Positions 12,601 through 18,600 of a DNA stretch of 64,000 bases are shown piece by piece. Source of the stretch: Escherichia coli (GTDB lineage Bacteria; Pseudomonadota; Gammaproteobacteria; Enterobacterales; Enterobacteriaceae); NCBI RefSeq assembly GCF_048403405.1, contig NZ_CP183129.1. One strand, written 5' to 3'. The number at the start of each line of letters is the position of its first letter. The first letter of the stretch is position 1. The position numbers were made by a program.

Positions 12601-15600
12601 ACTGACGGACAATGAGATCCGGTTACTGAACAGTTTAACCATTGAAGATCTGCATTATCTTTCTCAAAGTCCGGTCTCCATTATTACCTGCCAGATCCAC
12701 CGGGAGAATTTACGGTTATTACTGACCCGGGCAAAAGAAGTTCACCGTCAAAATCAGATGATTGAACGCTGTCTGAGACTGGGGGCATCCATCGATTTGC
12801 TGAATCAGTATTTTGGCATGACGTCACTGGAGGTGTCAGCCCGTCGGCGTTTGTCCGGGATCCGGGGAAATGCTGGCCGTTCACAGCGGCTGTCAGATGT
12901 GCAGCAAACGGAATTATGGTATCGCTGGAAAGAGGAGGGCATGCCGGAGCCGGATGATCCGGATTGTCTTCAGATCATGGTGTCCTGTGCCGAAAAAATG
13001 AATGTCTCTCTGACCACGGTATGGAATTCGGTTCAGGAATGGCACCGGGACGGCATACTGAATTCAGCTGACAGGGGGAAATATCATGCCGGATAACAGG
13101 AATATCAGTCATCATCAATCCGCCCGGATATTTCCGGAATGTGTCACGCCTGTTCCGGAGCATATTCAGCGGAAGGCAAACGGGTTATTGCTACGTTATT
13201 TTTCGGGAGAACGACTTTGTAAAAAAGTGAAATGCGGTGGAAAAAAGGGCGGTGTTTACCCGGTATTGAAAATTGATATTGGTGCATTCTGGCGTCTGCT
13301 CAGTATGGACCAGGGGCAAAGCTGGAAGCTGATGAGCCATGAACGTTATAACAAGATGATTAGCCGGTAAGGGCAGAATATTCAACATCATGATCCTCAG
13401 TATATTGAGACTGCCTCTTTACGGTGCGGTATTTTCACCGGAGGAGGCAGCTATAAGTGTATTCAGGCATGAAATTATTTTTGTGTGGGGCATAAGATGC
13501 AATTTCCTCCGGACAGTATTATTCAGTTTTCATTAGAAAAAATGCGGCAGCAACTGCATCACCGGCAACACAGCCAGCCCGGCACGGCACTGCGCAGTGG
13601 ATTGATTTACGCCGGCAATGTTCATGATGCAATCCCCCGGCAATTATTGCTGGAATCCCGACTTTCCCCGGTTGATAAACTGACCTGGATGATGATCCGC
13701 CTTCATGCTCAGCAAAATGAGGGGGCCGTATTTCCGACCTATGATGACTTACAACTCCAGTTAGCCACACCCCACAGCGATAAAGCCTCGCGGGAAACGG
13801 TCAGCAGGGCACTGTTAATGCTGAGGCTGACGGGCTGGCTCAGTTTATGCCATCGGGTCAGGGATAAACGGGGGCGTATCAGAGGAAATATCTATATGTT
13901 ACATGATGAGCCGGTGAATGCATTTGATGCAGAGACATTAGATCCACGCTGGATGGATGTACTGGAAAAAAGTTGTTATCACAAAAATAAGAGTGTGCGG
14001 TGCGTGGCCCGCGCTGCGCTGACTGCCCTGAAAACCGAGCCGTCAATGCGACATCAGCATACCAGAATGCAACTCATTGAGCAGCGGCTTGAAAGTCTTC
14101 AGACACCGGAAGCGCTGGCAGACAGGCAACGCCGGATACTCAATGGGCAGACGGCACAACTTCATCCGGGTAAACATAAAAAAAATCGAGCCCAGTGTAA
14201 AACACCGGATTTGAAAATCGAACTCAGGGAAAAAAATGATGAAAAAAAACCGGGTACGAAAATCGAACTGAGTACACAAACCCAGTCTGATTCAGGGGTA
14301 CGAAAATCGAACTGTTACGTACGTAATACTTTTACACAGAGTGTAAAAAATACGTACGTAGATCAGGGAGAGCAATATTTATCGGGTACTCAGGTGCAGG
14401 GGCTGCATCAGTGGATTGATGAGAATGATCGGCAGATGCTGGAAAAACAGTTACAGGCGTTGCCGGAAGAAGCCGCAATATCGATTGTGCAGCAACTGAC
14501 ACAGGGGGTGAGGACAGGAAGTGTACGTAATCCGGTGGGGTATGCCTTGCAGCTATTAAAGGCAGCCCGTGAAGGGCGATATCACTCCGTTTCCCCAGCA
14601 GAAACGGGGATGAAAAGTGCGTCTTTACAGAAAATGTCAGGTACTCCGGATGTATCACAGCACACGCAAACCAAACCGGAGAGAACGGAGAGAAGTAAGG
14701 CGTCTCAGGGGGGGATGGGTGCCCCTGATATTGCACGTCAGTACCTTCAGCGTTTTCGCCGTACGCTCATAGGGATATCCAATGAGCAATGAAGGCGTAT
14801 TCAATAAATCACCCGTGTTTCCACTGGAAACAGTGCTCAAAACTTAACCGGTGTTTCCACTGGAAACAGTGCTCAAAACTTAACCGGTGTTTCCACTGGA
14901 AACAGTGTTTAAAAATTGGGTTTTTCTTATCCGGGTAGGAAGGTCCGGAACGCGATATTTCGCTTTCCGTAACGAAATCTGCATCATCGAGAGTAAAGAA
15001 TTTAACAAGCTATGGAGCAGTCTGGTTAACGATATGGGCATAGAGATATTTTCGTACATATAATTTCACTCTGATATTTACTTTAAACTGATCTTATTGT
15101 TTTTTGCCCACTTTCTTAATCTTCCATTAGCGTTGGCGTAAGGCGAAGATGTGTTAAATGAGATCATTCTCCCCATCGTCCATTTTGTGTACCATAGTCT
15201 TCCATACAAAATATCATCGGTACGCTCATCAATAAGTTTCACAACTTCATTTTTTACAGCCTGAAGTTCAGCTACTAACAATTCATAACTTAACTCACTG
15301 TAATCTGAGTAAAATTTTTGAGCAAGAAGACTAAGTTGATTCCATTTATAGCCAGTTTCCGGAAAATCGACAGGCAGACCTTTAGCATCAAAAGTGATCC
15401 ACTTTACAACAAGAGCATTCCATCCAAGCAGATATGAAACAAGGTCATGAACACTTATCTTCGTTCCTTTGGCGTGTCCATCCATTGAGTTATCTGAAGT
15501 CATTTCTGGCGGGATTGCGTTGAGGTAACTAATTAATTTACTAAAACTTTTATCAATAGCTAAAAGCAGCTCAGCTTTTGTTTGTGGCACACTCATGAAG

Positions 15601-18600
15601 AATTTCCTCTTATTTAAAATAAGACACCATAAATGCATTGTATGGTGTTTATAAATCAATTAGGTACTGTACTACTCCCCTTACAACAGAGGAAGACCCT
15701 TAACTATTTACTGATGTTTCCGGTGGAAACAATGCTCAAAGGTTAACCTGCATTTCAGTAGGATGACGAGTAACGCTACGTTTTTATAATAAATTATTTT
15801 TTTCAATTTGAATTTATCGTTGGCATAGGGGGTTGACATTTGTACGGTATGTCAATTTCTCAAAGCAAGGGTATTGTTATGGAACAAAATAAACATTCTC
15901 AACAGTTACTTCAGGCTGGCCCTTTAAAGTCAACATTAACACTGAAACTCCATACCAGTTATGCAATCCGGCTATGGGAAGGGCGGGTTGTACCCAACTC
16001 TCAGAATGACGGTGACGAAAAAAAGCGTAAATGGATGATCCCCAGTCTTCCGATGTTTATTTCCCGGGCGGGTCATATTACTGATGATGCAAAGAAGGGA
16101 TACTTATATGCAGAAATGTGGCTGTATCAGCTTGAGCAGGCACTGGAGCAAGGGACTCGGACTATTCAGAAATTACTTTCAGAGGTTGAACAACAATTAG
16201 TTCAGTTACCTGCGGTTGCGGTTATTTCGGATATCTCATCAACATCTCCTGTTGACCTGGCGATATTCAGTAAATCTCCTGTTGGTTATAAATGTGTCTG
16301 GTTACTCGTCGGGGTTGATCAACTTGCTTTGCGTGTATTGCAGGGAGAGCATTATGGTTTTATTTCCCGTCAGCAACGTGACAAGGTCCTTAAATTAGCG
16401 GGCTATCAGGTTCGTCATGTGACAGGGATGGCCGTAAACTACCGGAAATATGAGCTCACCCGTCATAACCTTGATTTAAACAGTGAAACTTATCAACAGG
16501 CTTCCCGTTATTTAGGTGAAATTGATCCGGATATCATTTCAGGAAGAAAACGTGCGTCATTTTTACCGTCTTTAAAAAAATAACGAATGTTATTTATATT
16601 GGGTTAATTATTTAATAATAAGGAGCTGCAATGAAAAAAAGCGGATTGCTTACCTTATGCTTTTCTTTATGGCTTTTGACCGGATGCTCTGCACAGGAAA
16701 TCGCAGAATGGAATCAGAAAATCAGTGACCTGGGGCATCAGGTCAGTCATACCATGAATGGTGGTATGCAGAAACGGGAACAACGGGAGTATGACGTGGT
16801 TATCCCTGTTGATATTGATACAGCCGCAGCCCGTCTGCGCCGTTATTATGGTTTTGAGGATGTGAATGCCAAAATCCGTGCTCTGTGTCAGTCAGGTAAA
16901 GAAAGTGATCAATGGGCCGCCACGGCTATTGCAGAAGAAAGCCGGGGCTGGGAATGGGAAGTGACGCCGGGAAGTTATTATAAAATGGGGGCGGATATGG
17001 GAAAACGTAACCCGCCGGCACATATCGTCATCGAACTGGAAAAAAATGGTTCGGGAACACACATGTATATCACTTACAGCGCTTCGTACAGTGATACCCT
17101 GACTCCGGAGTTTGTTCAGGAAATATTTAAAACCGCGAATGACGTTGCAGCCGGAAAAAGGAGGTAGAACAGGGTAATGAAATTATTTCTGTGCGAAAAG
17201 CCGTCTCAGGCCAAAGATATTGCCCGGGTGATCGGCGCTCATCAGCGGCGGGATAATTTTTTTCAGGGAAATGGCGTTCAGGTCGCCTGGGCAAGAGGTC
17301 ATCTGCTGGAGCAGGCTGAACCGGAGGCTTATGGCGCACAGTTTGCGGCCCCCTGGCGGCAGAGTGCCTTACCCGTTATTCCTGAACAGTGGAAAATGGT
17401 GGTTAAAAAAGACGCGGTTTCGTTGTTTCAGACCATAAAACAGTTGCTCAGTCAGGCGACGGAAGTGGTGATTGCCACGGATGCGGACAGGGAAGGGGAA
17501 GTGATTGCCCGTGAATTACTGGAGGCCTGTCATTACCGGAAAAAGGTACAACGTTTATGGTTGTCTGCACTGGATGAGGCGAGTATCAGGCAGGCATTAA
17601 ATAACCTGTTACCCGGCGAGAAAACGGCCTCTTTATATTCAGCGGGATTAGGGCGGGCCAGAGCAGACTGGCTTATCGGTATGAACATGACGCGTCTGTT
17701 TACCCTCAAAGCCCGGGAACTGGGGTTTGGTGGGATATTGTCGGTCGGACGTGTCCAGACGCCGACACTGGCCCTGATTGTCCGGCGGGAAAGAGAAATT
17801 ACGCACTTTGTTTCCAAACCCTTCTGGCGGGTGACCGCCTCGTTGCAGCATCAGGGGATCATTTTTCAGGCTCACTGGCGACCTGCCTCGCAGTATTGTG
17901 ATGATGAACATCGTTGTATTCACGTTCAGGCCGCTCAGGCCGTAGAGCAACTGTGCCGGCAGGCAGGGAAAGCGACGGTGTGTACAGTGAATGAAACGAA
18001 AGGAAAAGCCTTGCCGCCGTTGCCGTTTGATCTCGGGACACTTCAGCAGGCGGCCTCAAGGCGTTGGGGGTATTCTGCGGATAAAGTGCTTGAAATCGCA
18101 CAAAGTCTGTATGAAAAACATAAGGCCACCACGTATCCCCGGACGGACTGCGGGTATCTGCCGGTGTCCATGCGTGCCGACATACCGGTTGTTTTAGATG
18201 CATTATCACAAAGCGATCCGGCCTTACAGAATGTGCTGGCACAATTGCAGCCGGCGCGAATTTCCCGGGTCTGGAATGATGCAAAAATTACGGCTCACCA
18301 TGCGATTATACCGACCCGGCAGACACCTGATTTGAACGCCATGAATGAGGCTGAACTGAATGTCTATAAACTTATCCGTGCCCATTATCTGGCGCAGTTT
18401 TTGCCGGATCAGGAATGGGATGCAACAGAGGTGTTTTTAGATATAGGCGGACAACAATTTGTTGCCAAAGGGAAAGTCGAAAGAGTGAAGGGCTGGTCTG
18501 TATTATTTGTGAAACATGAAGACGATCCGCCAGTAAAAGAAGAGGCAGAAACCGGGCTGGAAGCCGGAACAGAAACATTGCCGTCCCTTCACGAAGGTGA

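Follow-up and report, generated by a model that had tools for sequence, protein, structure and literature searches.

What do the palindromic 36-bp repeats on both sides of a ClbS/DfsB-like gene in an Escherichia coli chromosome do, and which protein reads them? The repeats lie in a 64,000-nucleotide stretch of contig NZ_CP183129.1 (assembly GCF_048403405.1), which is referred to here as the window and which is an integrative conjugative element (ICE) of the ICEPm1/SPI-7/PFGI-1 type. We consider it probable that the 36-bp units form a tandem loading array, similar to bisS or parS, for the element's own BisD-type ParB protein, a clamp dependent on cytidine triphosphate (CTP). Thirteen complete E. 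coli genomes, that of strain M24 among them, contain the region in their chromosomes at 100% identity, and its proteins are 99–100% identical to those of Proteus mirabilis ATCC 29906 and Providencia stuartii NCTC11800. The genes of the region are ordered as integrase, ParA, DnaB-PI, a ParB-family protein (ParB below), DUF2857, ParE-like, the STY4528 rep-like protein (Rep), the repeats, PFL_4669, topoisomerase III (TopB) and STY4534, followed by cargo, with a complete MPF_G transfer system past the window end.

An earlier note on this DNA had described three tandem 36-bp palindrome units and a fourth, degenerate copy, all in the same orientation. Tandem Repeats Finder reported positions 14811–14914 with a period of 36, 2.9 copies, 95% matches and a score of 187, and repeat alignment gave four in-register copies that were oriented alike (14808–14857, 14844–14893, 14880–14929 and 15707–15756, the fourth at 78% identity), in agreement with that description. 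The 15-mer palindrome of the note (GTTTCCACTGGAAAC) is real, but it is only the inner part of a 17-bp core. This core is a perfect palindrome with 8-bp arms and one centre base at 14816–14832, 14852–14868 and 14888–14904, and its counterpart in the fourth copy, TGTTTCCGGTGGAAACA (15715–15731), has one unpaired position. The pattern TGTTTCCNNNGGAAACA had 4 matches with at most one mismatch in the window versus 0.02 expected, and a longer pattern had 12 versus 0.66 expected. Between the rep stop codon and the array there are ~20 bp, and beyond the array comes an A+T-rich stretch. Strains differ in the number of units on the Rep side, with 3 in the window and 2 in GN02323, SCU-204, 21319 and P. 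mirabilis ATCC 29906. The half-site TGTTTC..GAAACA resembles chromosomal parS, TGTTCCACGTGGAACN (parS as quoted in PMC12409273). A common chromosomal element with no link to ICE genes, which the note had named as the finding that would speak against it, was ruled out because the unit occurred in 22 of 5426 complete E. coli genomes, with chromosomal matches only and every time within an ICEPm1-type ICE. The dimeric DNA-binding protein that the note suggested also survives, in the form of a putative ICE-encoded reader of these dyad-symmetric, ICE-specific sites. An intrinsic terminator was rejected, as no terminator-like sites were found, and a full-text literature search with six palindrome sequences matched no paper.

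The note had proposed to look for the motif in other ICEs. We fetched 80 loci with the Rep alignment (79 non-redundant), and synteny was conserved among them. Seventeen-bp palindromes of the form TGYTG-N7-CARCA were present in 69 of the 79 loci between the rep and PFL_4669 genes, beginning at or just past the rep stop codon, with 1–12 copies per array. The spacing between neighbours was exactly 36 bp in 52 cases, and other periods were 57, 85, 105–108, 118, 158 and 250 bp. Extra copies outside this gap and within 8 kb of rep were rare (6 in 942 kb). The outer bases of the palindrome and an A-rich spacer (consensus near GATTAAAAA) were conserved across loci. The inner bases varied by lineage yet stayed symmetric, with 18 distinct perfect arms; all four inner pairs were complementary in 40 of 58 distinct sites, versus 4.8 after shuffling. 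The array belongs to the ancestral, conserved backbone and is located between the rep-like and the PFL_4669/InrR-like genes.

As a sequence feature the array is already known, since it matches the "oriV repeat" region (oriV, origin of vegetative replication) of pKLC102, PFGI-1 and their relatives. We read the pKLC102 repeats directly from its record (L089), where 15.2 units of 57 bp at 8509–9374 lie between rep (7119–8444) and PFL_4669 (9767–10495). Each unit holds a 17-bp palindrome, and that of the first unit, TGTTTCCAGTGGAAACA, is the window palindrome except for the free centre base. A putative oriV of PFGI-1 lies at the same place and has four 46-bp repeats (PMC2647930), and iteron-like putative origins have been described for ICEHin1056 and, as cited there, for SPI-7, PAPI-1 and pKLC102 (PMC2258188). 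The window array shares with the pKLC102 and PFGI-1 repeats the homologous position between STY4528-type and PFL_4669-type genes and an inverted repeat in each unit; in contrast, its units recur every 36 bp and theirs every 57 or 46 bp, it has fewer copies and it is split by cargo. In the literature, the name oriV was given to these repeats on the basis of sequence features only.

A different function is known for the corresponding position of ICEclc. BisD of ICEclc is a 550-amino-acid (aa) ParB-like CTPase with the motifs G92NTR95 and E136N137ELR140 (Antar et al., NAR 2025, PMC12409273). It forms foci on two palindromic bisS sites (GAGCTATCCCCnGGGGATAGCTC) that lie 2 kb apart in inrR and ssb (PMC12409273; PMC7423338), spreads asymmetrically over ~50 kb and, together with BisC, activates 11 transfer-competence promoters (PMC12409273, PMC7423338). 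BisC is a DUF2857 protein (Carraro et al., eLife 2020, PMC7423338). We looked for exact copies of bisS in metagenome contigs and placed the window proteins on eight matching contigs by tblastn. In these contigs the order was ParA, ParB/BisD, DUF2857, Rep homolog, bisS-1, PFL_4669 homolog, bisS-2 and TopB. The ParB of the window was 35–45% identical to the contig ParB/BisD proteins (E ~1e-70; residues 9–300 to 9–452; 8 contigs), DUF2857 was 30–31% identical to the gene 3' of bisD, and PFL_4669 was 25% identical (E 1e-25) to the gene just 3' of bisS-1. In L113, L116, L117 and L143, bisS-1 lay 167–168 bp before the start of the PFL_4669 alignment (query residue 11); the other four contigs had the same order and two sites ~2 kb apart. 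Because both gene order and distance to PFL_4669 match, the window array occupies the bisS-1 position. By synteny, the STY4528 rep gene is the positional counterpart of ICEclc orf96323. The two systems thus share parA upstream and bisC (DUF2857) downstream of the ParB-like gene, the CTP-pocket motifs, a palindrome ~140–170 bp 5' of a PFL_4669-type gene and further sites elsewhere on the element. They differ in that the proteins are only 25–45% identical and in that the window module adds DnaB and a ParE-like gene.

The predicted structure of ParB is consistent with this correspondence. An AlphaFold2 model (predicted local distance difference test score, pLDDT, 78.6) placed helices at 167–176 and 183–196, which form a helix-turn-helix, and also at 201–233; the predicted architecture is an N-terminal CTP-binding ParB domain, the helix-turn-helix at ~167–196, a disordered linker and a C-terminal domain. 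All 21 PDB structures matched by the model at E ≤1e-3 were ParB, KorB, Noc or Spo0J proteins; the Foldseek matches to KorB, pNOB8 ParB, Noc, ParB and Spo0J had E values of 5e-6 to 2e-4, and the top match was KorB 8qa9. The CTP-pocket motifs GxxR (G92-N93-T94-R95) and ENxxR (E134-N135..R138) were invariant in 35 family members. In searches by sequence, Pfam gave no match for ParB and only a marginal HTH_36 match for Rep, and neither protein had a match in PDB sequence searches.

Comparison within near-identical backbones pointed to ParB as the reader of the palindromes. This comparison replaced naive mutual information by column, because the latter was dominated by phylogeny and singled out no protein; in whole-protein Mantel tests, palindrome distance correlated weakly with protein distance whichever protein was taken (r 0.03–0.17). 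In pairs of loci with near-identical backbones but different palindromes (L035/L081, L040/L082, L038/L061 and L060/L067), ParB was the most diverged protein. Its differences clustered in residues 150–250, and the same stretch was quiet in control pairs that shared a palindrome. L035 and L081, for example, are two ICEs of Serratia marcescens 106R with palindromes TGCTGCCA and TGTTGACA. ParB residues 201–250 best separated different-palindrome from same-palindrome pairs, with an area under the curve (AUC) of 0.93, and the AUC for Rep residues 51–150 was 0.58–0.69. When covariation was scored by column, ParB contributed 5 of the top 6 columns, and 9 of the top 20 (among 1241) fell in ParB 156–250 (hypergeometric P 1e-6), a count reached by 1 of 200 label permutations. 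According to the model, this stretch corresponds to the helix-turn-helix and following helices of a KorB/ParB/Noc-like fold. The specificity residues of KorB lie outside its helix-turn-helix, and the covarying columns 205–225 would suggest the same for the ICE protein. The genes between ParB and the array (DUF2857, ParE-like and the Rep N-terminus) showed no covariation with the palindrome, and the ParB covariation is therefore not a matter of simple physical linkage. Besides, a ParB motif at ~207–216 recurred with given inner bases in separate backbone groups, GLG[ATSG]PQIR with GGCA and G[LM]SRxQ..P with GCG(G/C).

Two other candidate readers were considered and discarded. DUF2857/BisC scored in crude tests, but its C-terminal segments were identical or near-identical across different palindromes (L038/L061, L040/L082). 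The high AUC of the PFL_4669/AcaB-like protein came from a variable N-terminal tail beside the array, and its core was identical in L035 and L081; the N-terminal PFL_4669 segments examined were identical or nearly so between loci with different palindromes. As a separate observation, co-resident ICEs of one genome (L035 and L081 in S. marcescens 106R; L029, L045 and L046 in Erwinia oleae) had different palindromes and different ParB helix-turn-helices in backbones that were 95–100% identical, a pattern expected if cross-talk or incompatibility selects private specificities.

Copies of the palindrome were also found far from rep, near transfer genes. The continuation of this ICE past the window, read in E. 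coli M24 (L090), had 6 further matches versus 0.00 expected at 3–33 kb from the window end, several of them next to traD, ardC and traI (Table 1). In an M19-type sister ICE (E. coli M19, L085), 15.5 units of 36 bp at 6608–7166 extended from ~20 bp 5' of the traD start and were annotated as 'hypothetical protein'. This array mixes TGTTTCCACTGGAAACA with a compensated variant, TGTTTCCCGGGGAAACA, that has the equally symmetric CCCGGGG in place of CCACTGG. Such a scatter of sites over transfer-gene promoters suits a regulator and clamp of the KorB/BisD type better than it suits Rep iterons. KorB of RK2 is likewise a ParB-family CTP clamp that loads at short palindromes near promoters (its OB sites) and regulates transcription with a partner. 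It differs in that its repression is short-range, whereas activation by BisD-type proteins reaches over tens of kilobases, and in that OB sites are single 13-bp sites.

By analogy with ICEclc, we infer the following course of events. Dimers of the BisD-type ParB would recognize each 17-bp palindrome through the helix-turn-helix, close round the DNA on CTP binding and, as clamps, slide rightwards with transcription into the element, where together with the promoter-bound DUF2857/BisC partner they would switch on transfer genes. ParA-dependent positioning of the excised element may be a further task of this complex. The ClbS-like gene is cargo outside the control of the palindromes.

Several observations weigh against such a loading array. 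The window site (17-bp TGYTG-N7-CARCA) is unrelated to the 23-bp bisS, and it occurs in 36-bp tandem arrays of 1–15 units with an A-tract spacer, whereas the ICEclc sites are single. A different site sequence is, however, expected for a diverged helix-turn-helix, and would make the window site a variant of bisS. A correspondence of the C-terminal domain of ParB to the BisD activation domain is less certain: the length of 549 aa and the disorder from residue 296 fit a long linker, but BLASTP against the ParB of pKLC102 covered residues 4–360 only. The covariation rests on approximately 6–8 independent switches, with pairs that are non-independent; some TopB columns also scored high, and the residue-to-base pattern of ParB has exceptions (L040 and L059). 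Besides, several arrays mix individually symmetric palindromes while each element has one ParB (L082, L015, L022, HAI2 L088, the pKLC102 array edges and L085), which is awkward for a ParB reader if the inner bases are read strictly. With a rep-like gene and an A+T-rich stretch directly beside it, the array also has the typical appearance of an iteron origin and has been labelled as one (PMC2647930, PMC2258188), and the strictly conserved 36-bp period and the A-tract spacer stay outside the explanation. The array could additionally serve replication or partition.

The main rival is an iteron-type vegetative origin, which the earlier note had offered as an alternative. Rep would bind the repeats, melt the adjacent A+T-rich DNA and load the DnaB of the island, and the array would be oriV or its copy-control locus, as are incA in P1 and incC in F, which both lie downstream of rep. 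The tandem direct repeats that begin ~20 bp past the rep stop and precede an A+T-rich stretch agree with this proposal, as do the DnaB-PI, topoisomerase III and STY4534 'replication protein' encoded by the module, the 15 repeats of 57 bp at the same position in pKLC102 and the older label of putative oriV for the homologous repeats of PFGI-1, ICEHin1056 and, as cited, pKLC102, SPI-7 and PAPI-1 (PMC2647930, PMC2258188). That label, however, was derived from sequence features, and each unit is a perfect dyad. Typical iterons are directional. In addition, the winged-helix region of Rep (residues 55–140) was almost invariant, in proteins that are 43–92% identical overall, while the inner palindrome bases differed by lineage with 18 arms; no Rep segment covaried above background except the C-terminus, which physically abuts the array; and copies near traD, ardC and traI lie far from rep. 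The match to the older label thus stands, but covariation, the bisS-1 position and the dispersed copies point to a ParB-like reader and not to the rep-like protein, and we regard the origin as unlikely, albeit the foremost of the alternatives.

An invariant Rep is better matched by a second set of palindromes, which lies inside rep itself. The sequence GTTCGG-N3-CCGAAC (in the window, GTTCGAAAATCGAAC) was found in the rep open reading frame (ORF) of nearly every locus among the 80 relatives, in 2–4 copies with fixed spacing and invariant half-sites. There were 232 matches in 96 kb of rep and 15 in 1079 kb outside it (2.4 versus 0.014 per kb, ~170-fold). The sites encode a repeated peptide, 'PGS..ELS', and they are the "23-bp palindrome x4" of PFGI-1 (PMC2647930). 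A third candidate site of ICEclc, CTTCGGAtTCCGAAG in orf96323, was tested and was not bound by BisD (PMC12409273); this 'bisS-3' corresponds to the intragenic rep palindromes. The latter may be the initiator's own sites and a more natural target for the invariant Rep. Such an arrangement is reminiscent of phage lambda, where ori lies within gene O. A long imperfect inverted repeat (TACGTACGTAATACTTTTACAC / GTGTAAAAAATACGTACGTA) was also observed inside the rep ORF at ~14315–14361. It overlaps the codons of the family-invariant motif CYVR..FTQSVK.TYV, and Rep invariance may therefore partly reflect a constraint at the DNA level.

A pure partition centromere of the F sopC type would be read by the same protein, with ParB bound to the array only for ParA-dependent segregation or positioning of the excised circular ICE and with no activation of genes. 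Tandem units with a dyad and a variable, dispensable copy number (2, 3, 12 or 15) resemble sopC, the module encodes ParA, and the ParB covariation fits this proposal equally well. In PAPI-1, soj/parA is needed for maintenance (cited in PMC4489591). Points on the other side are that ParB is of the BisD type, with 549 aa, a long linker, an extra C-terminal domain and a DUF2857/BisC pairing, a type that is required for promoter activation in ICEclc (PMC12409273), and that small site clusters lie directly upstream of transfer genes. Although sopC and SopB share with the window array and its predicted reader the tandem direct repeats with a short inverted repeat, a ParB-family dimer and a variable, largely redundant copy number, sopC directly follows sopB, whereas in the window 2.8 kb separate the ParB-like gene from the array downstream of it, and further copies occur at transfer-gene promoters; SopB also has neither a C-terminal domain of the BisD type nor a BisC partner. 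In plasmid F, sopC consists of 12 units of 43 bp, each with an inverted repeat. We find a centromere with no other role improbable. Partition is nevertheless compatible with a ParB loading array, and the ICEclc authors propose a dual role in gene activation and partition/replication (PMC12409273).

It is very improbable that the palindromes are kept as a structure-forming element, such as a hairpin or cruciform that provides priming or promoter signals in the transferred single strand. The inner bases do vary freely and stay complementary even inside one array, and mismatches concentrate next to the centre (pair 8 and pair 7 most), as for a stem with a small loop. A dimeric reader, however, explains the symmetry equally well, mismatches showed no strand bias by inspection, and there were no terminator-like features. 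The conservation of the outer TGYTG/CARCA bases and of the spacer goes beyond pairing, and the covariation with the ParB helix-turn-helix is left unexplained.

The earlier note had also taken the sites to bracket and control a ClbS module. This part was not borne out. A sister ICE from mouse E. coli M9 (L001) has 12 uninterrupted 36-bp units between rep and PFL_4669 and no ClbS. The sequence 3' of the last unit is alike in L001 and the window, and in both, 164 bp lie between the start of the last palindrome and the PFL_4669 start codon. Window positions 14969–15702 were 90% identical to a segment of pUTI89 and to ~200 other plasmid records, mostly conjugative E. coli plasmids; these matches span the cassette only (query 1570–2303), without the repeat unit. 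In the plasmid copies ClbS adjoins an ISEc53 (ISL3) transposase, and F-type plasmids have dinI/umuD next to ClbS. In the window, the GC content falls to 33–38% over the insert. From these comparisons, a ClbS cassette was inserted into an ancestral array and left 3 units on one side and 1 on the other. The bracketing of ClbS is an accident of this landing, and nothing should rest on it because the ClbS-like gene is ordinary cargo borne by an insertion sequence (IS). Similarly, in at least 10 other relatives the rep–PFL_4669 gap was enlarged by 1–6 kb, with palindromes at both ends and unrelated cargo between them. Inserts from six of the enlarged-gap relatives encode arsenic-resistance genes, DNA methyltransferases, AAA/ABC-type ATPases and proteins without a clear family; arsB, arsH, a dcm methyltransferase with an AAA ATPase, another methyltransferase and an ABC/AAA-like ATPase were observed between split palindromes in L010, L013, L046, L047, L054, L061, L067 and others. 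The array is a recurrent landing site for cargo, with ClbS as one more passenger. A set of operators through which a dimeric regulator at four flanking sites controls ClbS expression is hardly credible: the sites do flank the gene on both sides, one of them between the divergent ClbS and PFL_4669 starts, but an uninterrupted array exists without ClbS (L001), the cassette travels with its own 105-bp upstream region on ~200 plasmid records without the repeat, and in other relatives the split palindromes enclose cargo of unrelated kinds.

The cargo protein is a full-length DUF1706 protein that is homologous to ClbS (6anr) and nearly identical to structure 5cof. Unlike ClbS itself, its gene is without a clb island, travels with an ISL3-type element and is found on F-type plasmids. 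Orphan ClbS-like genes are common. The earlier note was right that colibactin genes are absent here: no clb (pks) genes were found in the 112 kb annotated around the ClbS-like gene, and the polyketide synthase/nonribosomal peptide synthetase (PKS/NRPS) cluster that is present has a different gene set. A second ClbS/DfsB fragment was observed at window 33022–33177. It is a pseudogene with an internal stop that adjoins IS110 and IS3 remnants, which suggests repeated IS-mediated arrival of ClbS cargo.

This family of ICEs carries virulence and resistance cargo and includes SPI-7 of S. Typhi, PAPI-1 and pKLC102 of P. aeruginosa, and ICEPm1 of Proteus, Providencia and E. coli; the transfer decision within it is known for ICEclc only. 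What is new here is the comparative evidence, taken together with the 2025 ICEclc work, for a tandem variant of a ParB-clamp loading site; the sequence feature itself is not new. If the array is such a site, the mechanism of ICEclc would hold for the enterobacterial branch as well, what has long been labelled an origin would be re-assigned, and a testable specificity code would relate ParB residues ~183–225 to the inner palindrome bases, with natural swap partners at hand. A wider generalization is offered tentatively, as one that we think somewhat more apt to fail than to hold in full: the "oriV iterons" of pKLC102, PFGI-1, SPI-7 and ICEPm1-type elements, which have carried that name for twenty years, would all be multi-copy loading arrays for BisD-type clamps and not replication iterons; the ParB helix-turn-helix and following helices would co-evolve with the palindrome and give each ICE lineage a private address, with no cross-activation of co-resident ICEs; the initiator sites would be the GTTCGG-N3-CCGAAC palindromes in rep, as with lambda O and ori; and the array would be a preferred landing pad for defence and resistance cargo.

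Table 1. Features of the palindrome array and its surroundings. Coordinates are those of the window unless locus L090 (the same ICE beyond the window, E. coli M24) is named.
Feature	Coordinates	Strand	Basis or remark
ParA-family ATPase of the ParB module	7372..8244	+	RefSeq annotation; conserved synteny
BisD-like ParB-family protein, 549 aa, proposed palindrome reader	10332..11981	+	TIGR03764, E 7e-103
DUF2857 protein, BisC counterpart	12506..13096	+	RefSeq annotation; Pfam PF11198 in relatives
STY4528-family rep-like protein ("pathogenicity island replication protein")	13497..14792	+	NF040582, E 1e-108
Second repeat set, in the rep ORF: degenerate GTTCG-N5-CGAAC (GTaCGAAAATCGAAC)	14199..14316	+	45/44-bp spacing; candidate Rep sites
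Three tandem 36-bp units, Rep-proximal part of the array	14811..14919	+	17-bp palindrome TGTTTCCAcTGGAAACA and A-rich spacer (GTGCTCAAAACTTAACCGG) per unit
Cargo cassette, inserted	14920..15702	-	~50 bp of other sequence, ISL3 stub, ClbS/DfsB gene and the gene's own 105-bp upstream region
Remnant of ISL3 (ISEc53-like) transposase 5' end, ~90 bp	~14969-15059		Part of cargo cassette
ClbS/DfsB (DUF1706) gene	15078-15596	-	DUF1706, E 6e-52; PDB 5cof, E 5e-103; ClbS 6anr, E 3e-53
Fourth, degenerate unit; palindrome 15715-15731	15707..15756	+	Original distal array end; 164 bp 5' of PFL_4669 start
A+T-rich promoter region of the PFL_4669 operon	15757..15878	+	Unchanged between elements with and without ClbS
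PFL_4669 / AcaB-family (InrR-like) gene, first gene 3' of the array	15879..16583	+	TIGR03761, E 4e-56; Pfam PF08900 AcaB in relatives
Three 36-bp-spaced palindrome copies	L090 17294-17382		Inverted orientation; ending ~38 bp before traD start codon
Two palindrome copies	L090 43743-43795		Upstream of ardC
One palindrome copy	L090 45480		In DUF1281 gene
One palindrome copy	L090 46956		At 5' end of traI-domain gene

Additional features were observed around the array. The region upstream of PFL_4669 contains a promoter-like site at 15763–15790, identified by consensus match only, and an inverted repeat, TTGACAT-N9-ATGTCAA, at 15833–15855 that is kept in L001 with one change; the repeat could be an operator, or a -35 element with a dyad partner. 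An unannotated ORF of 210 aa at 11959–12591 lies between the ParB-like and DUF2857 genes, and its position is held in relatives by zf-DksA/TraR and DUF2786/DUF7168 genes (L086, L088). A 48-bp repeat of 2.5 copies was found in the intergenic region 5' of the STY4534 gene (19807–19926), and a perfect 12-bp tandem repeat of 5.8 copies (AAAAAGGTATCG) in the 3' part of an Rpn-family nuclease gene (21366–21435). The PKS/NRPS cluster occupies 37214–58674 on the minus strand and includes a phosphopantetheinyl transferase (PPTase), two ATP-binding cassette (ABC) transporters, a thioesterase, an oxidoreductase, a 9.2-kb type I PKS, a 6.1-kb NRPS and a methyltransferase. It resembles the nrp yersiniabactin-like siderophore locus of Proteus, and it is followed by a major facilitator superfamily (MFS) transporter and a TonB-dependent receptor (to ~62938).

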